The notes under the pieces: generated by a model
What the model was told of the DNA's origin: nothing
Databases searched by the model: none
The model's input: only the letters and a program-made list of their open reading frames with translations
In this document: positions 1 through 57,269 of the stretch, piece by piece
Layout of the letters: each line of letters opens with the position of its first letter
Position numbering within the stretch: the first letter of the stretch is position 1
Position numbers and translations under genes: made by a program
NCBI GenBank assembly: GCA_001805055.1
Contig: MHDZ01000015.1
Coordinates: 1,263 to 65,262 of the forward strand
Length of the DNA: 64,000 nucleotides
Source of the DNA: Nitrospirae bacterium GWC2_57_13
GTDB lineage: Bacteria > Nitrospirota > UBA9217
Direction: 5' to 3'

Positions 1-495
1 TGGCACTTGCCGCAGGTCTTCATGGCGATGGAGGGATTGAAGGCCAGCGTTTCCGGATTCTTGTCGTGCCAGACGATGGCACGGTAATCGCGATTGTTCT
101 CGACCTCGCCGTCTATCATCTGCTTAGGGGCCAACTGCGTTGCACGATTATCGCCGCGCGGCTCAAGGGAAGGCCAGCCTTTCGCATCCTGTTCCGGCAT
201 CTGCGGCCGCGTAAGCGCCTTCCACTGCCTGTTCACGGCCATGACCGTGATCATGCCCGCATGAGCATCCTCCTTCGATTGCTTTTGCGGATCGCCGAGA
301 TGGCAGTCCTCGCACTGCGCGGGCATGCCTGACTGTGTAAGCGTATCCATGAGCCCGACGGTGAACTGCGGATATCCCTGCTTTGCCATTGCCGCGGCAT
401 TGCCGTGGCAGTCAACGCAGCTTCCCGCGGAAGCGCTGCCCGCTGCAAGGACCAGCGCGCACAAAAGCATTGTCACCGTGAAAAGAACACGCATC
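1..495 (-). CDS. Multiheme c-type cytochrome, partial (C-terminus lies beyond the window start)
   Basis: Minus-strand frame from ATG at 493-495 reads MRVLFTVTMLLCALVLAAGSASAGSCVDCHG...CEDCH...CGKC. It has a signal peptide and at least 2 CxxCH haem motifs (a third begins at the window edge). SD GGGAGG lies 6 nt upstream. It is absent from the ORF track only because it lacks an in-window stop. Confidence 0.75.
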
Positions 496-567: not shown

Positions 568-573
568 ATTATA
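568..573 (-). promoter_or_regulatory. Candidate extended -10 promoter (TGcTATAAT on minus strand) for the cytochrome c gene
   Basis: Reverse complement of 566-580 reads ctgcTATAATaaag, lying in the AT-rich tract 540-600 about 65 nt upstream of the ATG at 495. No clear -35. Confidence 0.3.
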
Positions 574-627
574 GCAGAAACGGCATGATAAGAAGCGAAC
601 GGAAGGGAATAGCATTGCCTGCTGTTC

Positions 628-717
628 CGGTTCATCCCCGCACGTGCGGGGAACATAGAACAAAACGATGCGTCGATTGCGGCGAGGACGGTTCATCCCC
701 GCGCACGCGGGGAACAC
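628..717 (-). CRISPR. Orphan type I-E-like CRISPR remnant with 2 repeats and 1 spacer
   Basis: Two 29-nt repeats CGGTTCATCCCCGCACGTGCGGGGAACAT (628-656) and CGGTTCATCCCCGCGCACGCGGGGAACAC (689-717). Reverse complement is GTGTTCCCCGCGTGCGCGGGGATGAACCG, the canonical I-E hairpin repeat. A 32-nt spacer gives exact 61-bp periodicity. The distal repeat is degenerate but keeps its palindromic stem. No cas genes and no leader are present in the window. Confidence 0.6.
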
Positions 718-731
718 CACATCGGTGGTCG

Positions 732-1208
732 CTACAAGAACCGCCGTGCGTCGAGAAAATGCCTGCGCCAGTAGGCGTCCTCGACGCTGTCTGTCCGCAC
801 CGTCTTGCCGGTGCTCGGGGCATGGACGAAGCGGCTGTCTCCCACATAGATGCCGACGTGGGAATAGCTCTTGCCCCGCTGCTTGAAGAACAGAATGTCG
901 CCTTCCCGCATGCTCCGCTTCGGAACGGAACGGGTGTGCCTCCTCAGCTCTTTCGTGCTATGGGGGACCTTCTTCATGCCCGCAGACGCGTAGCTGTACT
1001 GGACCAGGCCGCTGCAGTCGAAGCCTGCGGGGCCGTTCCCCCCGTACCGGTATGGTCTGCCCAGCATGGTCAGCGACACCTCCGCTGCTCTTGCTCCGAC
1101 CGTGTACGAATACCCGTTCAGACGCACAGGCGGCCGCGTGTTGCCGCAGCCGGCGAGGGCGGCGAAAAGAGCGCCCAGCACCACGGCTGATATTTGAACT
1201 TTATTCAT
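732..1208 (-). CDS. NlpC/P60 (C40) peptidoglycan endopeptidase lipoprotein
   Basis: Lipobox LAGC in the signal peptide MNKVQISAVVLGALFAALAGCG. Catalytic-core motifs FDCSGLVQYSY, GDILFF and SHVGIYVG are present. Start re-assigned to ATG 1206-1208, inside ORF 732..1271. Confidence 0.85.
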   Translation of the reverse strand: MNKVQISAVVLGALFAALAGCGNTRPPVRLNGYSYTVGARAAEVSLTMLGRPYRYGGNGPAGFDCSGLVQYSYASAGMKKVPHSTKELRRHTRSVPKRSMREGDILFFKQRGKSYSHVGIYVGDSRFVHAPSTGKTVRTDSVEDAYWRRHFLDARRFL

Positions 1209-1279
1209 ACTCGTTATTTTCCGCATATTTAATAAAATGGAACGAGGCACTGCTTCAGGTCTTCGGGACATGCCAGAAG

Positions 1280-4389: not shown

Positions 4390-4866
4390 TCAGAGATACC
4401 CCAAACGCGACAGGACGATTGCAGCGAGGAAGCCCAGGACGATGCCGAGGACAACGTTTCTCGCGGTCTTTCGTCGAGCTTGCTCACGCTCTCGTTCGCG
4501 CTCTTGCTCCAGCGCGAGAGGCGACACAAAGCCGGCGCTCGGTTTCCCAGCCATGAAAGCGCTTTCCGTGCGGGAAGTTCCAGCCTTATCTTTCAATCGT
4601 TTCATAATCTGCTCCAGCCCGGCCGCACGGTCGCCCTCAACGGTATAACTGAACTCGTTTTTCGTAGTTTTCGTTGTGTGCTTTGCCCCTTTGCCCAGAT
4701 TATCGAAGACGTCCGCTATGCCGTTTCCATCCTTGTCCTCCAAAAGGGATAGCGTGGATTCGAGCTGTTGCCGCTCGTCCTCGGGGATCTGCTCGATGCT
4801 GCTGTACTCTTTCCCATTGATCACGTATCGTTCGTTCTTGATCGCGGTTTTCGTCTTCTTGAACAT
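4390..4866 (-). CDS. Hypothetical tail-anchored protein (C-terminal TM) with the same N-terminal INGxxYSS...PEDxR motif
   Basis: Start MFKKTKTAIKNERYVINGKEYSSIEQIPEDERQQ with SD GGGAGG and a 6-nt spacer. It has an EREREREQARRK linker and a C-terminal helix VVLGIVLGFLAAIVL. Paralogous N-terminus to 3537..4313. Confidence 0.55.
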   Translation of the reverse strand: MFKKTKTAIKNERYVINGKEYSSIEQIPEDERQQLESTLSLLEDKDGNGIADVFDNLGKGAKHTTKTTKNEFSYTVEGDRAAGLEQIMKRLKDKAGTSRTESAFMAGKPSAGFVSPLALEQEREREREQARRKTARNVVLGIVLGFLAAIVLSRLGYL

Positions 4867-10665: not shown

Positions 10666-12102
10666 TCAATCGAACATTTTCTCCAACTGCTTTCTCACCG
10701 TTCCTGACTCAGGCACCGCCGACCAGCTTGGATAACCCTTCTCACCAGTCGACTTCCACCACTTCAGGACCGCCGGCGGGATGGCACGATGAGGTGCAAG
10801 CCTTTCCGGGAACACGGGCGAGACAAAGGCGGCGCTCCGGGTATAGCTGTCCCAGAGCCCGTCCGAGCAGGCATAGCACGTCCCGCCCGTCAGAAGCACC
10901 TCGATGCCGAGCGCGTCGTTATGGACGATCGGCCGCACTTTGGTCAGGTCCAGCTCGGTTGCGCTCTCGATCATTTCATCATTGATCGCCTTGACAGCCT
11001 TTGCGCCAAGGGCCGTCATAACAGCGTCGTGTTCCGTCTGCGTGAACAACGTTTGCATGGATCCCCCGCCCTTTCGCTGCTGCTCATCAGCACGCTTTTT
11101 CTGAACTGGCGCTGCCAGGATCTTTTCGCCCGTCTCAACGTTCACAATGATCATCTCATGTCCCATGCCGCCGTGTGCCGCTCCGCAGCCATAATAATAC
11201 GTTTTCGGGACGACAAAGAGCCATGGGCCGACCATGCCGAGCACCTCAAATTCCGTGCTCCGGTCACCGTATTCGTCTCCCTCCGCCGCCACGATGACGG
11301 TCCGCGTCTCCTTGCCGTCCGGACCGGTCCTGATGATCGACAGTTCAGGCTCCTCGGCATCAACCAGCTTCGGCCTGGCATCAGGGTCCTTAATGTCAGC
11401 GGTGAAGCAATCAGCATTCTTGACCTTTCGCTTCTCGATCCTGACCTCAGAGAACGTTCCATTGATGATGCTGACAGGCAACGCGCCTTTCCTGCGTTTT
11501 ACGACGGTCCCTGAATCGTCGATCCACAGGAGTTCGCTCTGGAGAGGAGCCCCCTTTTTGTTCTCCTGCGATATTTTCCACACCAGAAAGCCATCACCGG
11601 ACACAGCATGCGGCGTCGACGCAGAAGGCGCATCCTTTTCTCCGAGAATTATGAACGCATCTTTCGTTTTTCGAAGCACCAGGGCCGTGCTTGCGTCGCC
11701 TTCTTTCACAACACCCTTGGCACTCTTTATCTTATAATGAAATGAGACGGCGACCTCCCTCTCACGATCAGTGACTACCGGCTGGACCTTGAGCGAGAGA
11801 AACAGATGCTCCCGGTTCGGCCAGCGGTCGAAGTACTTCTCCTTGTCCGCCGCAACAGCCGCCTTGCTTACCCGTCCAAGCTTGTAGAAATCCACCTCAT
11901 CGGCGTAGAGCTTCATGACCTCGTCGAAGTTTTCGTTCTTCTGGCTAAGGTCCAGCCACTTCGTAACAAACCTCAGCACCTCGACCTCACCTTCGATGTT
12001 CAAGGGGAAGTCCTTTGCCCACAGCATGCCGGGCTGAGTACATATAAAGACGAAGAGCATCAAGACAATTCTTCCCATGACCGCCGTGATCCATCGAGAC
12101 AT
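10666..12102 (-). CDS. Secreted protein, paralogue 1 of a 3-member family sharing an N-terminal ~120-aa domain (NTF2/SnoaL-like resemblance)
   Basis: Signal peptide MSRWITAVMGRIVLMLFVFICTQPGMLWA. Shared domain WLDLSQKNENFDEVMKLYADEVDFYKLGRVSKAAVAADKEKYFDRWPNREH...VLRKTKDAFIILGEKD. SD GGAGGA with a 7-nt spacer before ATG 12102. C-terminal ~300 aa is unique. Confidence 0.7.
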   Translation of the reverse strand: MSRWITAVMGRIVLMLFVFICTQPGMLWAKDFPLNIEGEVEVLRFVTKWLDLSQKNENFDEVMKLYADEVDFYKLGRVSKAAVAADKEKYFDRWPNREHLFLSLKVQPVVTDREREVAVSFHYKIKSAKGVVKEGDASTALVLRKTKDAFIILGEKDAPSASTPHAVSGDGFLVWKISQENKKGAPLQSELLWIDDSGTVVKRRKGALPVSIINGTFSEVRIEKRKVKNADCFTADIKDPDARPKLVDAEEPELSIIRTGPDGKETRTVIVAAEGDEYGDRSTEFEVLGMVGPWLFVVPKTYYYGCGAAHGGMGHEMIIVNVETGEKILAAPVQKKRADEQQRKGGGSMQTLFTQTEHDAVMTALGAKAVKAINDEMIESATELDLTKVRPIVHNDALGIEVLLTGGTCYACSDGLWDSYTRSAAFVSPVFPERLAPHRAIPPAVLKWWKSTGEKGYPSWSAVPESGTVRKQLEKMFD

Positions 12103-12217
12103 CCTTTTGTCCTCCATGACACAAAACATCTATTCATTGCTGCGCAGAGCCTGATAAAAACATACTGCTTCGCCGACTTCTTCCCCTCACGTAATCGGCC
12201 CCGGCAAAAACGCCCGC

Positions 12218-15109: not shown

Positions 15110-16264
15110 TTACCGCTCCCTCTCGCTTACGATCACGAATCCCCTTTCCATCTTGTGCAGTACAAGCACGGCGCCTGCTCTCCCTTCAATGCTCTTTCTG
15201 CCGTCCGACAGAGTATAGTGAAATACCAAACTCACCATTTTGTCGCCGATCTCATTGTTGTCGGAAATGTCGATCGATTGCAACGCGTGCTCCCGCTTCG
15301 GCCATTTGTCGAAATATTTGTTCTTGTCTTCTTCAATAGCAGCCTTCTTTACTTTCCCTTGCTTGTAAAATTCCACCTCTTCGGCATAGAGCGCCATGAT
15401 GGCGCCGAAGTTCTCATTCTTCTCGCTCAATCGAAGCCAGACTTCGATGAATTGCATGGCCTCCTTATCCGTCGCCGGCTCCCCTGTCATCTGAGCCAGT
15501 GTGTAGACTCCGCGGTTGAATGTATAACGCCTTGTTCGATTTATTTTGATGATCCCATCACCCAGTCGTTCGGAATCAGTGCCCCTTGTCACAACAAGGA
15601 TGTCAAAGAACTCCCGAGGTAATGCGGGAAGAAACGAGATGGTTGAGTCGAAAGAGTAGCACTTTTCTTTTTCAGTGCAGGCGCCTGTATTGTCTCCCGA
15701 GGTGTCGTAGATAGAGAGATCTTTGAGTTTTCCCCGATGCTCATACACGAAGGCTTTTGACCCCGCGTAGTATCCTCGATTTCCACCGCCTGTCTCGAAC
15801 AGTACGCCGAATCGCTCGGCCCCGATTTTGACCAACTCTCCACCGTGCCCGTAGCCATGGGCGCCCTGGACGAGGACATTCCGCGCCACAGCATCGACCC
15901 GCCAGCCATTTGCCACTTTCGTCATCGCCGCGGCGCTGATCGTCGCGCCGCAGGTCTGGCACTCCCCGTGATCGGCACGCTGCGTGAAAAAGTATAGCCT
16001 CTCGACAGTACCCTGCTTGAACGGAATCGTCTTAAGCGGCCAGTCATCTTCCGGCGGAGGGGCCATCGGATCCTGCTTCTTCGGCTTCCATTCAGAATAG
16101 CTTTTTTTCGGGTCGTACTTTCCTTTGATGACGGCGAGTCCCTTGCCGGGGTTGAATTCGCCGACGATAATGGTTCCCGCCTGTGTCTTCTGACCGGCGG
16201 CGGATGCACCGGGATTCAGCATCAGGAACAGGAGTAGAGAGATTGATATAACACCGGTTTTCAT
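15110..16264 (-). CDS. Secreted protein, paralogue 3 (unique N-terminal ~230-aa domain, with the shared domain at the C-terminus)
   Basis: Signal peptide MKTGVISISLLLFLMLNPGASAAG. C-terminal WLRLSEKNENFGAIMALYAEEVEFYKQGKVKKAAIEEDKNKYFDKWPKREH...VLHKMERGFVIVSERER. SD AAGGAGGA with an 8-nt spacer. Confidence 0.7.
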   Translation of the reverse strand: MKTGVISISLLLFLMLNPGASAAGQKTQAGTIIVGEFNPGKGLAVIKGKYDPKKSYSEWKPKKQDPMAPPPEDDWPLKTIPFKQGTVERLYFFTQRADHGECQTCGATISAAAMTKVANGWRVDAVARNVLVQGAHGYGHGGELVKIGAERFGVLFETGGGNRGYYAGSKAFVYEHRGKLKDLSIYDTSGDNTGACTEKEKCYSFDSTISFLPALPREFFDILVVTRGTDSERLGDGIIKINRTRRYTFNRGVYTLAQMTGEPATDKEAMQFIEVWLRLSEKNENFGAIMALYAEEVEFYKQGKVKKAAIEEDKNKYFDKWPKREHALQSIDISDNNEIGDKMVSLVFHYTLSDGRKSIEGRAGAVLVLHKMERGFVIVSERER

Positions 16265-18465: not shown

Positions 18466-19848
18466 TCACTTCTTCTGCCACGTCTTTCCACCGTCCTTGC
18501 TCACATACAGGTCCTTCGGCCCGCCGAAACCAACGGCTCGATCTCCACACTCGGTCGAGAGGTTGAGGCCCTCATTGTCGAGGAACCTGATATGCGCGCA
18601 GTTCGGCGTGGGCATGGAGCGCGGGTCCCAGGCCGTTTTCCCCGCAGCGCGGAAAAAGAACGGCCGCTTCTCGGTCTCCATATAGAAGGAGATCTCGCGC
18701 TCCGCGAACAGGCCCGCGGGCTTCTCACGCAGCAGTCCTATGCTTTTTATCTCTACGGGAAGTTCCACGGATTTGAATTCGGTCCGGCCGTAGGCACTGA
18801 ACAGCGCAAGGGGCGGCGTAGCGATGTAAGCATAATACCCCGTTGCTCCCGGCGAGACCTTCGCGTCCGATTTTTTCTCGGTCACGGACCCAAGGTACGA
18901 CTGCCACCGGTCCCCGTTGCTCGTACTGGCGTAGATCTCCAGCTTGTCGTCAACGATGACGAGGTCGCTCGTCCCCAGCGCATACACCTTGCCTGCCCGC
19001 AGTCCGTCAGGCGTCCGCTTCTCCGCGACCTTGCCGTTCTGGACGAAAAAGAGTCGGTTGTTCTTCGTCAGGAAGGCAAACCGGTCCTTCACGTAGTTCG
19101 GCGATTCGCTCTGGAGACTTGAAACCGTAGGAACGTCTATGAGTCTAACGCCGCTGACCTTGCCGTCCTTGTTTTTCTGCACTTCCGCCAGCGTACCCAC
19201 ATCCCCGGCTACATAGGTGGCATAACCGCCCGAAGAGGCCGCATCTTTTATTGCGATCTCCTTCCGCAGCGCCTCGAGCAGATTGGCCGGCATCAGATCG
19301 CCCGGGGCGAGGGTCATCGTGTCGGTCCTGAGCTTCTGCGCGAGCAGCGGATAGCCGCTCTTCAGAAAATGCTTCATATCCGATGTGTTGTCGACAAAGA
19401 GACGCATGAACTTCTTCTGTTCCTTGTCGCCCGGATCGGGATAGAGGACGATCAGCCCGAGGTTCGTTATCTCCTTCGACCGCACCACGAATTTCCGCTT
19501 GACCGGCAGCGTGGTCGTGTTCATCGTCGTGACCGTATAGCCGCCATATGAACTCGATCCGCCGTAGGACTCGCTGTACAGGCCGCTGAGCTCATATTCT
19601 CCCGGACTCAAAGGAAACGCGATGAACCCGTTCACTACCTTGCCTTTCTTCCGGTTATTGATCAGAACCTCTTTATAGATCGACCATTGCCACAGCCGGC
19701 CGATGCCCACCACCTGGCCGACCACGAGCCCCTTGTCCCCGATGTCCTCGGGCAGGTCGGGCCGGTAATCCGGCAGGCTTACGCAACCCGTCAGGAGCAC
19801 CATGCTGAGTGCACCCAGCATGACGAATAAGATCAACCGTTTTCTCAT
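18466..19848 (-). CDS. Lipoprotein with BNR/Asp-box repeats (beta-propeller-like), tandem paralogue A
   Basis: MRKRLILFVMLGALSMVLLTGC has a lipobox. Asp-box motifs STSNGDRW and SKDGGKTW. About 45% identical to the downstream gene. SD GGGGGAAG. Confidence 0.75.
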   Translation of the reverse strand: MRKRLILFVMLGALSMVLLTGCVSLPDYRPDLPEDIGDKGLVVGQVVGIGRLWQWSIYKEVLINNRKKGKVVNGFIAFPLSPGEYELSGLYSESYGGSSSYGGYTVTTMNTTTLPVKRKFVVRSKEITNLGLIVLYPDPGDKEQKKFMRLFVDNTSDMKHFLKSGYPLLAQKLRTDTMTLAPGDLMPANLLEALRKEIAIKDAASSGGYATYVAGDVGTLAEVQKNKDGKVSGVRLIDVPTVSSLQSESPNYVKDRFAFLTKNNRLFFVQNGKVAEKRTPDGLRAGKVYALGTSDLVIVDDKLEIYASTSNGDRWQSYLGSVTEKKSDAKVSPGATGYYAYIATPPLALFSAYGRTEFKSVELPVEIKSIGLLREKPAGLFAEREISFYMETEKRPFFFRAAGKTAWDPRSMPTPNCAHIRFLDNEGLNLSTECGDRAVGFGGPKDLYVSKDGGKTWQKK

Positions 19849-19898
19849 GAGCTTCCCCCTTTCGTGTTTCTGCGTGCCGCAAGAAACGCGGCACCAGC

Positions 19899-21260
19899 CT
19901 ACTTCTTCGTCCATCGGCGGCCGCCGTCGCTGCTCTGGAACGTCTCCTTAAGACAGAGGGTCTCCAGGTTATTGCCTGCATCATCGAGGAATCTGATTCC
20001 ATAACAGGAGATCATGGGCATGGCTCTTGTTTCCCAAGGCGACGCTGCATCCTTCTTTACATAGAAGGGAAAGGGCGTGTTCTTGGTCCAGGCAGTTATG
20101 TGCGTTTCGACGAACAGGCCGGCCTTCTTTTCCGTGACAGTCTGGATATTGCCGAGCTTTTCCGGAAGCACAAGCTTCGCGAGCTCCGTCTTGCCGTAGG
20201 CGCCCGCGATCAGGACCGGAGGGTAGGTGCTGTAGACATAGTAGGAGCGTTCACCTGTCACGAACTTCCTCTTTACAGGCTCTTTTACCACAAAGCCTTC
20301 ACTCGACTTCCACGTCTCTCCGTTGTCGTTGCTCACGTAGATCTCCAGGAGGTCGTCCACGATCACGATGTCCTTGCTGCCCAGGGCGTAGAGGTTACCG
20401 TCGCGCAGGGCCGCCGGCGGCCGCTTCTCTTTCACCGCGCCGCCCGTGACGAGGAACAGCCTGTTGTTCGCCGTCATAAAAACCAGCCGATCGCTATTGT
20501 GGTCCGACGACTTGGACACGATGTTCGACAAGGTTTCCACATCGAGCACTTGCACATCAGAGATCTTGCCGTCCTTGCCCCTCTTCACCTTCGCCACCGT
20601 GCCCACGTTCCCGGCAACATAGTCCGCAGCAGCGCGCGACGCAACAAATTCCTTGAGAGCAATGTCCCTCCTGAGCGCCTGCAGCAGCTTGGGGTCCTTC
20701 AAGTACTCTCCGGCCGACAGCGTCATTGCATCGACCTTCATGCTGGCTGAAAGCGCTGGATAGAAGGTCTTCAGAAAGCGCTTCATGTCGTCCCTGTTGT
20801 CGATGAAGAACCGGAAGAACCGCTTGTTTTCCTTGTCCTCGGGATCGGGGTACAGGAGAATGAGGCCGATGTTCGTGACCTCTCCCGGCCAAATGGTGAA
20901 CTTCCGGTTCAGCGGCATGGTCGTTGAATACTTCGTGGTATATGTCACGTTCCCGTTCGTGGTCGATCCACCATAGGTTACATAGTTCAAAGCATCGAGA
21001 GAATATTCGCCCTTGTCGAAAGGAACGGCGATGAGCCCCTTTACCAGGCCGTTGGTATAGGTCTTCTTGCCTATCACGATATTCCCGCTGTTCGTGGACC
21101 AGCCGGACAGCCGGTTGATGCCGACCACCTCTCCCACCACGATCCCTTTACCGCCGATCTCCTCGGGCAGTTCCGGCCGGTACTTCGGCGCAACAGAACA
21201 CCCGGCAAACATAATGATAGACAGTACGAGCACGCCCAACCCTGGTCCGCGTGTCATCAT
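19899..21260 (-). CDS. Lipoprotein with BNR/Asp-box repeats, tandem paralogue B
   Basis: MMTRGPGLGVLVLSIIMFAGCS has a lipobox. Asp-box motifs SNDNGETW and SSDGGRRW. Collinear with paralogue A. SD GGAGGAGA with an 8-nt spacer. Confidence 0.75.
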   Translation of the reverse strand: MMTRGPGLGVLVLSIIMFAGCSVAPKYRPELPEEIGGKGIVVGEVVGINRLSGWSTNSGNIVIGKKTYTNGLVKGLIAVPFDKGEYSLDALNYVTYGGSTTNGNVTYTTKYSTTMPLNRKFTIWPGEVTNIGLILLYPDPEDKENKRFFRFFIDNRDDMKRFLKTFYPALSASMKVDAMTLSAGEYLKDPKLLQALRRDIALKEFVASRAAADYVAGNVGTVAKVKRGKDGKISDVQVLDVETLSNIVSKSSDHNSDRLVFMTANNRLFLVTGGAVKEKRPPAALRDGNLYALGSKDIVIVDDLLEIYVSNDNGETWKSSEGFVVKEPVKRKFVTGERSYYVYSTYPPVLIAGAYGKTELAKLVLPEKLGNIQTVTEKKAGLFVETHITAWTKNTPFPFYVKKDAASPWETRAMPMISCYGIRFLDDAGNNLETLCLKETFQSSDGGRRWTKK

Positions 21261-21412
21261 GATCTGTATCTCCTCCATCATCCGGACATATTTTTTTCAG
21301 TATCGCCGACGATGGATGCCAGGTCAAGGTAATTTTCACATTTTCTTGAGGAGACCGCGAACAGCGGCCCGGTGTTTGCCTGAAAAGCTGCAACAGAATG
21401 CGCGATAAGGGC

Positions 21413-29531: not shown

Positions 29532-30545
29532 TTATTGCACCGGTTTTATGTTCACATTGGTGCTCACGAGCTTCCACCCGGCGCCCTCATCGATGAAGGA
29601 CAGCTCGAACAAGACCCTCGAAGGGCGTGTGGGATAGTGTCCTTTGAGTGAAAGTACGCCTTCTTTCGAAAGGGAAGGCTTCTCATCAAAGACGGGCGTT
29701 AATTTTTCAACGACGGGCACCAGGTTGACATTGTTGTCCATGAAGGCCTTGAAGGCACTGTTAAAATACTCCACCGTGGCCTCGTTCTTCCACAGCAGGG
29801 AAACATGGCCGTGGAACTCGGTAAAATCGCTGGCATTCACGGAACGTGAAAAGCGCAGGAGGTTGTTCTTGACAAGAGCGGCCAGTTCATCCTTCCCTGG
29901 CACGCGGCCCGCCGCTTTCGCCCTCCTGGCCTGCGCAGCCGAAGTATATTTTATGATGCTCCGCGTGATCTGCTCGTGGGCCTTTCTCACATGCTCCAGC
30001 CCCGCCTTGTTCGAGCCGCCCACCACGATGATGCTCATGCCTGCCGTGAAGGGGATCTCGGTCTGGATGACCGATGTGGCCAGTGTTGGCACTTCATACT
30101 CGTAGGCAACGTACGTGATGCCCTGAAGTTCCGCGATGCCGCAGCTCTTCATCTTCACGGGGCCGCCAAAGAGCCTTGCAGCCTCGTCAGGCAGGGAAGC
30201 ACACGCATCCTGTGCGGCCTTCGCCGTGGGCTGCTGACCGCCCTCCATGAGCTGCACGCTGATGTTATTATTGAAATCCTTCGTGGAGTATTTCCGGTCG
30301 AAATAGAACTCCACCTTGCCCGTCTTGACCCGTTCGAGCACGGCCTTCATGTTCTCCTGATCGCCGTACTCCAGGCCCAGGCTCTTGAGCGTCTCTGTCC
30401 CGAACTTCCCGGCCGCCTCTTTTGAGGTCAACACAAGCCAGTCCTTCGACAGCTCAAAGGGGAACCCAAAGGTGCTTTGATATTCCGCAGCCGGCCCGGG
30501 AGCAGGCATGACCAAGAGCAGAAGGGTAAGAACGTATTTCCTCAT
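29532..30545 (-). CDS. Hypothetical periplasmic protein
   Basis: Start MRKYVLTLLLLVMPAPGPAAE is a signal peptide. SD GGAGG. 337 aa with no recognisable domain. ORF 29532..30626 trimmed. Confidence 0.6.
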   Translation of the reverse strand: MRKYVLTLLLLVMPAPGPAAEYQSTFGFPFELSKDWLVLTSKEAAGKFGTETLKSLGLEYGDQENMKAVLERVKTGKVEFYFDRKYSTKDFNNNISVQLMEGGQQPTAKAAQDACASLPDEAARLFGGPVKMKSCGIAELQGITYVAYEYEVPTLATSVIQTEIPFTAGMSIIVVGGSNKAGLEHVRKAHEQITRSIIKYTSAAQARRAKAAGRVPGKDELAALVKNNLLRFSRSVNASDFTEFHGHVSLLWKNEATVEYFNSAFKAFMDNNVNLVPVVEKLTPVFDEKPSLSKEGVLSLKGHYPTRPSRVLFELSFIDEGAGWKLVSTNVNIKPVQ

Positions 30546-30715
30546 GAGGCCTCCGATGGGGCTGCTAAACGATGAAGCGTACGGCCAAAACACGGGGCTG
30601 CTGGTCATGACGGCGCCGGCAACCACGTCTTCCCTTTAGCGAATAATGCCATTATCCTTCAGAAGTGATGTACAGTCAAGGCACTATTCACCACGCTGCC
30701 GTCTTTCTGCCATAA

Positions 30716-31453: not shown

Positions 31454-31605
31454 AGTTGTCACAACTCCACCCTGCAAGTACATCCAGTCAGCTTTTCTCT
31501 ACTGTAGCAAATTGTGCCGGCTGCTGCAAAAGAATTTGTCAAGCCCTTCGTGCAATGAATTCCCGTTGCAATCGTTGACTTGGCATTATATAATCTTTCT
31601 GTTCC

Positions 31606-31640
31606 GAAAAAGGACAATAATAACTTTTGCCACAGAGAAC
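31606..31640 (+). promoter_or_regulatory. Candidate sigma70 promoter (TTGCAA-17 bp-TATAAT) for the PurH-like gene
   Basis: ccgTTGCAAtcgttgacttggcattaTATAATc lies about 115 bp upstream of the ATG at 31752. A structured leader follows. Confidence 0.35.
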
Positions 31641-31751
31641 ACAGAGATCACCGAGGAAGGCAAGATTTTGTCGTTTATTTATTAGGCCACGCGCTCCTCT
31701 GTGTCCTCGGAGACCTCTGTGGCATAACGCATTTTCAATCAGGAGGCTTCC

Positions 31752-33044
31752 ATGTCCGATATCAAGAAGATGTACAAGACCATCATGTCCGACAATTTCC
31801 CGCCCGAGATGACCATCACCTTCGGCGACCAGAAGCTTGTTTATAAAAAGCAGGCCTGGAAGCTGCCGGATGAAGGCACCGGCGAGGTGATCGAGAAGGG
31901 CCTTCGGTACGGCGAGAACCCGGACCAGCAGGCGGCCATGTACCAGCTCGCAGGCGGCAATCTGGAGCTTGCGGGTGTTAAGTTCATCAACCCCGGGTAC
32001 GGGCTCGTAACAAGTATCACAGAAGAGCAGATGCTCCAGGCAGGCAAACACCCGGGCAAGACGAACTTCACGGACCTGGACAATGCCCTGAACATCCTGA
32101 AATACCTGATGGACCGCCCTGCGGCAGCAATCATGAAGCACAACAACCCCTGCGGCGTGGCTTACGGCAGGACCATTGCCGAGGCCTATGACCGGGCGAA
32201 CATGGCGGACCGCATTGCCGCTTTCGGCGGATGCCTGGCCGTGAACCGGCCCATCGACAAGGAAACAGCAGAGATGGCGAATGCCAACTACCTGGAGGTC
32301 GTTGCCGCTCCGGACTACGAGGCAGGCGCCGTGGACATCTTGAAGAAGCGGAAGAACCTTAGAATCATCAAGCTCGAAAAGATCGCGGAACTGGCGAAAT
32401 ACCGCGACATGAGCTTCGTGGAGTTCAAGGCCCTGATCGACGGCGGCATCATCGTCCAGCAGTCGCAGAAGAACAAGATCAGAACAGCAAAGGATTTCCT
32501 GCCTGCAAAGACAACATACAAAGGCAAAGAATACGCCGTCGAGCGGCAGCCCACGGACAAGGAACTGGATGATATGCTTTTCGGCTGGAGCGTGGAACAG
32601 GGCATCACGTCCAACTCGGTGATCTACGTGAAGGACGGCACGACCGTTGGCATCGGTACGGGCGAACAGGATCGCGTCGGCGTGGCCGAGATCGCCATCT
32701 ATAAGGCCTATACCAAGCATGCCGACAGACTGTGTTTCAAGAAGCACGGCATCCCCTACAAGCAGTTCGAGCTGGAGGCGTCGCAAGGCAAGCGGGACAA
32801 GGCGGCGCTCAAAGAGATCGACAACCAGACAAAGAGGGACAAGGGCGGACTGATCGGCTCCGTCATGGTTTCTGACGCTTTCTTCCCCTTCCGCGACGGC
32901 GTGGATGTGGGAATAAAGGAAGGCATCTCGGCCATCGTGCAGCCTGGCGGGTCGGACCGGGACTTCGACATCATCACGGCCTGCAACGAGTCGAGCCCCA
33001 AGGTCACGATGGTCTTCACAGGCCAGCGGGTATTCAAACACTAA
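31752..33044 (+). CDS. PurH-like AICAR transformylase-domain protein (AICARFT/IMPCHase bienzyme family, formyltransferase domain only, no MGS-like cyclohydrolase domain)
   Basis: Signature KHNNPCGVA, also GGCLAVN, GIGTGEQDRV and the C-terminal SDAFFPFRDG...QPGGSDRD. SD AGGAGG with a 5-nt spacer. Confidence 0.8.
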   Translation: MSDIKKMYKTIMSDNFPPEMTITFGDQKLVYKKQAWKLPDEGTGEVIEKGLRYGENPDQQAAMYQLAGGNLELAGVKFINPGYGLVTSITEEQMLQAGKHPGKTNFTDLDNALNILKYLMDRPAAAIMKHNNPCGVAYGRTIAEAYDRANMADRIAAFGGCLAVNRPIDKETAEMANANYLEVVAAPDYEAGAVDILKKRKNLRIIKLEKIAELAKYRDMSFVEFKALIDGGIIVQQSQKNKIRTAKDFLPAKTTYKGKEYAVERQPTDKELDDMLFGWSVEQGITSNSVIYVKDGTTVGIGTGEQDRVGVAEIAIYKAYTKHADRLCFKKHGIPYKQFELEASQGKRDKAALKEIDNQTKRDKGGLIGSVMVSDAFFPFRDGVDVGIKEGISAIVQPGGSDRDFDIITACNESSPKVTMVFTGQRVFKH

Positions 33045-33114
33045 AGCATTGAACCGCAATGGACGCATCGGTTTACCTTTGTACCCTGATCGTCTTCGCG
33101 GTTCATCCTTTGAG

Positions 33115-56666: not shown

Positions 56667-57269
56667 TTGCTTACCATGGACTGGAAAACGATCCTCGACC
56701 CTTTCCTGCTCAGCCTGATCCCCATCTTCGTGGCCGTGGACCCGCTCGGCATGCTGCCCATCTACGTGGCCATCACCGAGGGGCTCAAGAAGCGCCAGCG
56801 CAAGACCGTCATCTGGCACTCGATCCTCACGGCCTTTCTGATCACCGTGGGGTTCATCTTCCTCGGGAGCGCTGTCTTCACGGCCCTCGGCATCCTGGTC
56901 GAGGACTTTCTGATCGCCGGCGGGATTCTGCTGCTGATCATCGCCGTCATCGACATCCTTCGCGCTGGAGAAAAGAAGCTGCCGCCGAGCCCCAACGTGG
57001 GCGTGGTGCCCCTCGGCACGCCACTCATTGCCGGCCCCGCGGTTCTCACCACGGCCCTAGTGCTCGTGGGTCCCTACGGCTACGTTCCCGTCATTCTGGC
57101 GCTTTCCGTGAACCTCCTGCTGACCTGGATCGCCTTTGTCCTCGCCGACCGGATCATCAAGCTCATCGGTATCAACGGCGCCCGCGCCATCGCCAAGATC
57201 GCATCTCTCCTCCTCGCCGCCATCGCAGTCAAGCTTATCCGAAGCGGCATTGTCAAACTGCTGGAATAG
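56667..57269 (+). CDS. MarC-family (UPF0056) integral membrane protein
   Basis: LLSLIPIFVAVDPLGMLPIYVAIT signature with six TM helices. Confidence 0.8.
   Translation: MLTMDWKTILDPFLLSLIPIFVAVDPLGMLPIYVAITEGLKKRQRKTVIWHSILTAFLITVGFIFLGSAVFTALGILVEDFLIAGGILLLIIAVIDILRAGEKKLPPSPNVGVVPLGTPLIAGPAVLTTALVLVGPYGYVPVILALSVNLLLTWIAFVLADRIIKLIGINGARAIAKIASLLLAAIAVKLIRSGIVKLLE

Follow-up and report, generated by a model that had tools for sequence, protein, structure and literature searches.

Two short direct repeats around a single spacer, set between an NlpC/P60 gene and a cytochrome c gene of a groundwater Nitrospirota, raise the question of whether such a unit is a working piece of type I-E CRISPR immunity, an RNA element that serves the chromosome in some other way, or a relic. 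We addressed this question in a 64,000-nt stretch of Nitrospirae bacterium GWC2_57_13 (GCA_001805055.1, contig MHDZ01000015.1, positions 1,263 to 65,262 of the forward strand), the whole of which is called the window here. The locus comprises the following features, in window coordinates.

1-494, minus strand: 5' part of a multihaem cytochrome c gene (PF14522, PF22113), cut by the window edge
568-576, minus strand: possible extended -10 element TGCTATAAT for the cytochrome gene, read by eye in the AT-rich stretch downstream of R1
628-656, minus strand: R1, the downstream repeat in crRNA sense, 29 nt; plus strand CGGTTCATCCCCGCACGTGCGGGGAACAT, crRNA sense ATGTTCCCCGCACGTGCGGGGATGAACCG
657-688, minus strand: sole spacer, 32 nt; crRNA sense TCCTCGCCGCAATCGACGCATCGTTTTGTTCT
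677-691, no strand assigned: 15-nt segment deleted in L034 (L034 9793-9867, JGI 3300025309, Ga0209212_1001044)
689-717, minus strand: R2, the upstream repeat in crRNA sense, 29 nt; plus strand CGGTTCATCCCCGCGCACGCGGGGAACAC, crRNA sense GTGTTCCCCGCGTGCGCGGGGATGAACCG
718-731, minus strand: junction between the NlpC/P60 stop and R2, 14 nt, CGACCACCGATGTG, where a leader would be
732-1271, minus strand: NlpC/P60 lipoprotein gene (PF00877) as the longest ORF, with its stop codon TAG at 734-732

Along the minus strand the order is NlpC/P60, 14 nt, R2, spacer, R1, an AT-rich stretch (627-540) and the cytochrome gene from 494. The NlpC/P60 start likely lies near 1208, which gives a protein of 158 aa as called by JGI. 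The full-length cytochrome is 598 aa, the complete gene having been read from L001.

R1 and R2 start 61 nt apart with a 32-nt spacer between them, and are 89% identical over 28 nt. The first-pass annotation had described two 29-nt repeats at a 61-bp spacing around a spacer at 657-688, and we reproduced these coordinates. The locus thus has the direct repeats of ~29 nt, separated by 32- to 33-nt spacers in a 61-nt period, that are expected of type I-E arrays. Such arrays are also expected to have at least three repeats, and here there are exactly two: a degenerate third repeat was present neither at +/-61 and +/-122 nt nor in the remainder of the window. In computed folds R2 forms a hairpin with a 7-bp stem and a tetraloop (-14.4 kcal/mol), and R1 folds to the same hairpin. 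The core of this hairpin occurs elsewhere in the 64 kb at one unrelated site with 2 mismatches. The mini-array is carried by at least 11 independent assemblies and is therefore not an assembly artefact.

The strongest evidence on the nature of the repeats comes from other genomes. We searched one-genome-per-species contigs and, in a second scan, metagenome contigs for GTGTTCCCCGCGTGCGCGGGGATGAACCG, the reverse complement of the plus-strand R2, and the exact pattern matched 28 genome stretches and 76 metagenome stretches. Most of these stretches hold long arrays, with tens of repeat copies (81-92 in the largest) at a period of ~61 nt, and R2 is identical to the repeats of such genuine long arrays at 29 of 29 positions. 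The hosts of this repeat family include Tepidiphilus, Rhodospirillales, Desulfovibrionaceae and Bdellovibrionota, among other genomes. In L107 the array directly follows a complete cas3-cse1-cse2-cas7-cas5-cas6e-cas1e-cas2e operon, and in L006 an array with the same repeat follows cas6e-cas1e of a partial operon, in both cases on the same strand (cas genes assigned by NCBIfam equivalogs). Since R2 is identical to the repeats of arrays behind I-E cas operons, it is a bona fide type I-E CRISPR repeat; the fit to the canonical I-E hairpin repeat that had been proposed from the reverse complement is an exact one. R2 has the Cas6e hairpin and the 8-nt 3' handle of the I-E repeat family, and ends in crRNA sense in AUGAACCG, the prospective 8-nt 5' handle of the single crRNA. 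Judged by its repeat, the mini-array is type I-E CRISPR material, an assignment that we consider solid. The crRNA strand is the minus strand, an orientation set by the arrays downstream of cas2e; that of the L107 and L006 arrays agrees with the orientation inferred at the outset. Rfam gave no match in the window at gathering thresholds and CRISPR-DR28 alone at permissive ones, so that the identification as CRISPR rests on identity to real arrays.

Type I-E arrays normally stand next to cas genes, and none were found around this one. The eight Cas proteins of L107 and two from L006, compared by tblastn with the window and with flanks beyond its start, gave a best E value of 0.29. No Cas family appeared in a Pfam scan of 40 window ORFs, or in precomputed Pfam annotation of the first 11 kb and of ~5 kb past the cytochrome gene. 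The earlier statement that 64 kb contain no cas genes is thus upheld, and extends over a further ~5 kb. The ORFs scanned with Pfam are respiratory, signalling and envelope genes, with products such as molybdopterin oxidoreductase, 4Fe-4S proteins, BamA, a histidine kinase, an SLT transglycosylase, and PPAT-like and RsmD-like proteins.

Interspersed with the molybdopterin oxidoreductase and 4Fe-4S protein genes are long minus-strand ORFs of 364-509 aa for which no Pfam family was found (10666-12129, 15110-16264, 18466-21281, 29532-30626 and 31539-33068). They appear to encode proteins specific to this group of Nitrospirota, and a homologue of ORF 18466-19914 also occurs in a relative (L041).

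A leader upstream of the first repeat is likewise missing. We collected 38 non-redundant leaders of arrays that carry this repeat. Common to them are a GGTAG motif ~55 nt upstream and a junction in which GAAGA or AAGT directly precedes the repeat. In the window this place is taken by the final codons of NlpC/P60 and the 14-nt junction. Neither the motif nor such a leader-repeat junction is present in the 14 nt between NlpC/P60 and R2, and a profile of the 38 real leaders, run with nhmmer against the whole window, found nothing (best E = 5.5). These results agree with the first-pass annotation, which had excluded a leader on the grounds that the NlpC/P60 stop codon is 14 bp away. A consensus scan detected no sigma-70-like promoter between NlpC/P60 and the repeats, and no intrinsic terminator was found there. 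Read-through from NlpC/P60 would be the only evident source of transcription for the mini-array. On the far side of R1, TGCTATAAT is a possible promoter element of the cytochrome gene; the consensus scan did not call it because it has no good -35 element.

Comparison with relatives provides information on the history of the site. The closest homologue of the NlpC/P60 protein (88% identity; L118/L119, one contig of the same project) is also encoded behind an MGMT/Ada-like gene and is thus syntenic. The two genes align as far as the stop codon; homology ends there, and the 136 nt available beyond it in the relative contain no repeat. The closest homologue of the cytochrome is 68% identical and lies on a 247-kb contig (L041) in a rearranged neighbourhood with neither NlpC/P60 nor repeats. 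As the two nearest relatives are without repeats, there is no sign of an ancestral array or cas locus at this site. Measured against these two relatives, the mini-array is apparently not conserved beyond one population. The first-pass annotation had offered two readings, a minimal array used in trans and the tail that a deletion or insertion had left of a longer array. An orphan remnant is indeed the best-supported description, whereas the two nearest relatives show no ancestral array or cas locus from which a tail could have been left. On this evidence an ectopic or horizontally acquired fragment would be as likely as an array tail left by deletion.

Fourteen contigs encode proteins 100% identical to those flanking the repeats; their sources are groundwater metagenomes (PRJNA268031 and related samples), a JGI metagenome and two NCBI MAGs under the name Nitrospiraceae bacterium (GCA_003475985.1 and GCA_003483085.1). 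A contig of the same population was also retrieved from JGI by the repeat scan (L068). Contigs of this single Nitrospirota groundwater population are 99.6-100% identical to the window, and 10 of 11 carry the mini-array unchanged. At a diversity of 0.1-0.4% no SNP is expected in 90 nt, and the identity of the unit is therefore uninformative on constraint. The exception is L034, in which 3 nt at the end of R2 and the adjoining 12 nt of the spacer are missing, so that a 17-nt spacer is left. Over 10,509 nt this contig shows no other difference from the window, and no other indel appeared when more than 50 kb was compared pairwise within the population. The deletion is bounded by a 2-nt AA microhomology. 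Found in a single assembly, it could be an assembly error. If real, it would leave the variant without any crRNA function, and the variant could be used as a strain marker in the aquifer population.

R1 and R2 differ solely at positions 1, 12, 13 and 15: one change is at the first base, and the other three are in the four-base loop. The two repeats agree throughout the stem and the 8-nt 3' handle. It had been proposed that the leader-distal copy shows the usual terminal degeneracy while preserving the palindromic stem. The second part holds, R1 having an intact stem and a hairpin of -14.3 kcal/mol. The first part does not, given that the 65 terminal repeats of real arrays with this repeat have their mismatches mainly at positions 22-29, where R1 has none. 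Loop variants at positions 12-15 form a secondary class among those 65 array ends. The probability that at least three of four changes would fall in the loop at random is ~0.004. This bias could fit a constraint on the hairpin, perhaps selection for processability; it would be equally well explained by descent of R1 from a natural loop variant, common in real arrays.

The spacer had been put forward as a potential record of a past invader. A blastn comparison with 50,697 phage and 72,556 plasmid records returned partial matches only (best E = 0.06-0.3), and a search of IMG/VR viral contigs in which every sixth position was left free returned none. Within 534 kb of I-E loci that included cas operons, and that covered cas diversity to a limited extent, no match reached 22 of 32 positions. 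The spacer has no full-length self-match within the window, and seed-anchored matches there were without a PAM and inside coding sequence. The proposed record of an invader thus met with no significant match in any collection searched, phages, plasmids and IMG/VR included. This is a weak negative, because to our knowledge most environmental spacers match nothing known.

The first 15 nt of the spacer match at 14 of 15 positions at 57211-57225 (plus strand) and 4416-4430 (minus strand), both coding and both without an I-E PAM. Any such match was given by two of 300 shuffled 15-mers. The motif is GC-rich and codon-like (CTC GCC GCC ATC), and we take these matches as compositional.

Other isolated units of one or two repeats of this family, with both ends internal to the sequence, were present among the loci that we fetched: L014 (Tepidiphilus olei, 2637-2665), L064, L078, L084, L087, L094, L096, L110 and L112. 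No I-E Cas homologues were found in the fetched flanks of these relic loci, several of which are 8-12.7 kb long (for example, L014, L064 and L078). Stranded fragments of this I-E repeat thus recur in unrelated genomes. The literature describes small orphan arrays and mini-arrays as well as ectopic repeats that are gained and lost dynamically (PMC8616872, PMC10120712), and the locus described here adds one more stranded CRISPR fragment to this ordinary, well-known kind of object; it is most likely not a new system. With type I-E arrays of the E. coli K-12 type it shares the identical 29-nt repeat of the GTGTTCCCCGCGTGCGCGGGGATGAACCG family, the 32-nt spacer, the 61-nt period, the Cas6e-type hairpin and the AUGAACCG handle, but it differs in having two repeats only, no leader, no adjacent cas operon and no protospacer that we could find. 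Mini-CRISPR arrays of viruses and proviruses also consist of one spacer between two repeats that equal, or almost equal, those of complete systems (Faure 2019, Medvedeva 2019, reviewed in PMC8616872). By contrast, the mini-array described here lies in a chromosomal housekeeping context in which no phage genes were seen. In addition, the GTGTTCCCCGCGTGCGCGGGGATGAACCG repeat was absent from 2.9 million viral contigs.

With moderate confidence, we favor the view that the mini-array is a non-autonomous evolutionary relic that drifts and decays, and not a maintained immune or regulatory element. This reading draws on the identity of the repeat, the count of exactly two repeats, the lack of a leader and local cas genes and of a promoter or terminator behind NlpC/P60, the absence of the unit in relatives, the deletion variant, the failure to find a protospacer, the recurrence of comparable relics and the published record of small orphan arrays. 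The unit is a genuine I-E fragment of two repeats and one spacer, its leader and cas genes lost or never present, in the 3' untranslated region of the NlpC/P60 gene of a groundwater Nitrospirota chromosome. It may have come to lie there by ectopic copying, by horizontal acquisition of a fragment or by truncation of an array. Having no leader, it is unable to acquire new spacers by the normal route. Its transcription would be at most passive, as the tail of the NlpC/P60 mRNA, and the two hairpins may incidentally stabilize or punctuate the 3' end of that mRNA. We infer that the mini-array has no function of its own. Its repeat is otherwise seen in Proteobacteria, Desulfobacterota, Bdellovibrionota and other phyla, and its presence in a Nitrospirota chromosome is a hint that this lineage once had a type I-E system or came into horizontal contact with one.

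Among the alternatives, the one that fares best is a working minimal array used in trans, which we nevertheless think unlikely. Here, an I-E cas locus elsewhere in the genome would supply Cas6e and Cascade, NlpC/P60 read-through would supply the transcript, and the product would be one 61-nt crRNA directed against an invader, composed of 5'-AUGAACCG, the 32-nt spacer and AUGUUCCCCGCACGUGCGGGG-3'. In its favor, neither the two hairpins nor the 5'-handle sequence is damaged, the spacer length is canonical, and the changes in R1 avoid the stem and the handle. Against it are the lack of a promoter and of a protospacer in the collections searched, and the absence of the unit from the 136 nt that follow NlpC/P60 in the nearest relative. 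The missing leader and the L034 variant, in which the handle/spacer junction is broken, argue weakly in the same direction. As to a cas locus elsewhere, no Nitrospirota is among the 28 genome stretches with the exact repeat, and the mini-array itself is the sole match to GTGTTCCCCGCGTGCGCGGGGATGAACCG in the JGI sample that holds L068; both are weak negatives, as arrays assemble and bin poorly. In a search for Cas1e homologues the best 120 of 8,000 matches were 79-100% identical and none of them was named Nitrospirota; matches of at least 80% are ubiquitous, and the closest named relatives come from soil sites and not from this aquifer. Orphan or degenerate arrays that remain after cas loss are known, for example the orphan I-F CRISPR4 arrays of E. 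coli, which are described as constitutively expressed and as carrying spacers that match cas genes of the cognate type (Almendros et al. 2016, reviewed in PMC8616872). They are equally tiny, have canonical repeats and lie between housekeeping genes without local cas genes. The mini-array in the window differs from them in lacking a leader or promoter, a spacer match of at least 22/32 within the 534 kb of I-E loci, and conservation across lineages.

A Cas-independent role as an exapted or incidental RNA structure, in which the GC hairpins would act as a 3'-end stabilizer or as a partial insulator between NlpC/P60 and the cytochrome gene, appears distinctly improbable to us. The arrangement lends itself to such a role, in that two hairpins of about -14.3 kcal/mol begin 14 nt after the stop codon, no other terminator lies between the two co-directional genes, and the cytochrome gene apparently has its own TGCTATAAT element downstream of the repeats. 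However, neither hairpin is followed by a U-tract, so that neither is a canonical intrinsic terminator, and the 201-nt region around the repeats is not unusually structured overall (z = -1.09). The 3' region of the relative's NlpC/P60 gene has no equivalent repeat, and any effect would be a by-product of the repeats and would not testify to selection.

We would be surprised if the spacer transcript acted as a regulatory crRNA-like or antisense RNA that modulates expression of the 509-aa protein encoded by the Pfam-less ORF 31539-33068. Spacer positions 7-27 match 19 of 21 bases at 33054-33074 on the plus strand, inside the stretch 33048-33079. The matched segment covers the ATG and 5' UTR of this minus-strand ORF, and a minus-strand spacer transcript would be antisense to its mRNA and could pair with the translation-initiation region. 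The score was reached by only three of 500 shuffled spacers (p = 0.006). With 1,203 real spacers of other arrays as a more realistic null, however, 1.0% reached it against this same window, and the match is one of several that were tested. Moreover, seed positions 1-6 are unmatched, and Cascade-type binding is not expected. We conclude that the match is probably due to chance. In regulatory mini-arrays, crRNA-like RNAs and CreA-type elements a single spacer is likewise flanked by two repeat-like sequences, but these elements belong to cas loci, recur in related loci and are partially complementary, next to the PAM, to the promoters of cas or toxin genes (Shmakov et al. 2023, PMC10120712); the unit described here has neither a cas locus, nor conservation, nor PAM-proximal complementarity to a promoter. 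Were the antisense reading true, a CRISPR fragment co-transcribed with NlpC/P60 would have been exapted as a chromosomal small-RNA gene outside a cas locus.

Near the same site, a 10-nt GGATGAACCG, equal to the 3' end of the repeat, occurs at 33107-33098 (minus strand), ~30 nt upstream of the spacer match. We rejected it as a candidate feature because its local alignment score is within the random range.

That the repeats are not CRISPR at all, and form a chance palindrome pair or a REP-like element, might be suggested by the presence of two copies only and by the weak CRISPR-DR28 score (14.7 bits against a threshold of 35), but is effectively refuted by the identity of R2 to the repeats of dozens of long arrays by I-E cas operons, the exact 61-nt period, the absence of any match to R2 in 100 dinucleotide-preserving shuffles of the window and the lack of the further window copies that a REP family would show. 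The argument against chance that had originally been drawn from the period is thereby strengthened. Three further candidate origins were discarded: a neo-CRISPR that arose when Cas1-Cas2 integrated ectopically at a non-repeat site, since R2 matches the canonical repeat exactly and does not derive from local sequence; a homing array of a CRISPR-associated transposon, since transposase genes are absent; and a REP element, since there are two copies only.

Several minor observations were made in the course of this work. Between the Ada/MGMT-like gene and NlpC/P60, at 1279-1398 on the minus strand, lies a GC-rich nested palindromic element with outer arms CCCCTCACC and GGTGAGGGG and an inner perfect 13-bp hairpin, CCCCGTTAGAGGC-TGC-GCCTCTAACGGGG. 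A 212-nt region containing it reaches -95.3 kcal/mol when folded (z = -4.45), a stability that none of 200 shuffles attained. The element is present in a single copy in the window, has no Rfam match, and may represent either a structured part of the NlpC/P60 5' UTR or a small element of mobile or REP-like type.

Two other loci were also noted. At ~1274-1363 of OFHJ01002804.1 (L109), cas7-cas5-cas6e is followed directly, with no intervening cas1-cas2, by one exact and one 3'-degenerate repeat, possibly a two-repeat mini-array in an adaptation-less I-E locus. In Ga0066710_100014547 (L123, 2494-4534), an I-E cas2 gene and a three-repeat array are followed at once by two genes of the phage integrase family, an arrangement that suggests an I-E locus at or in a mobile element.
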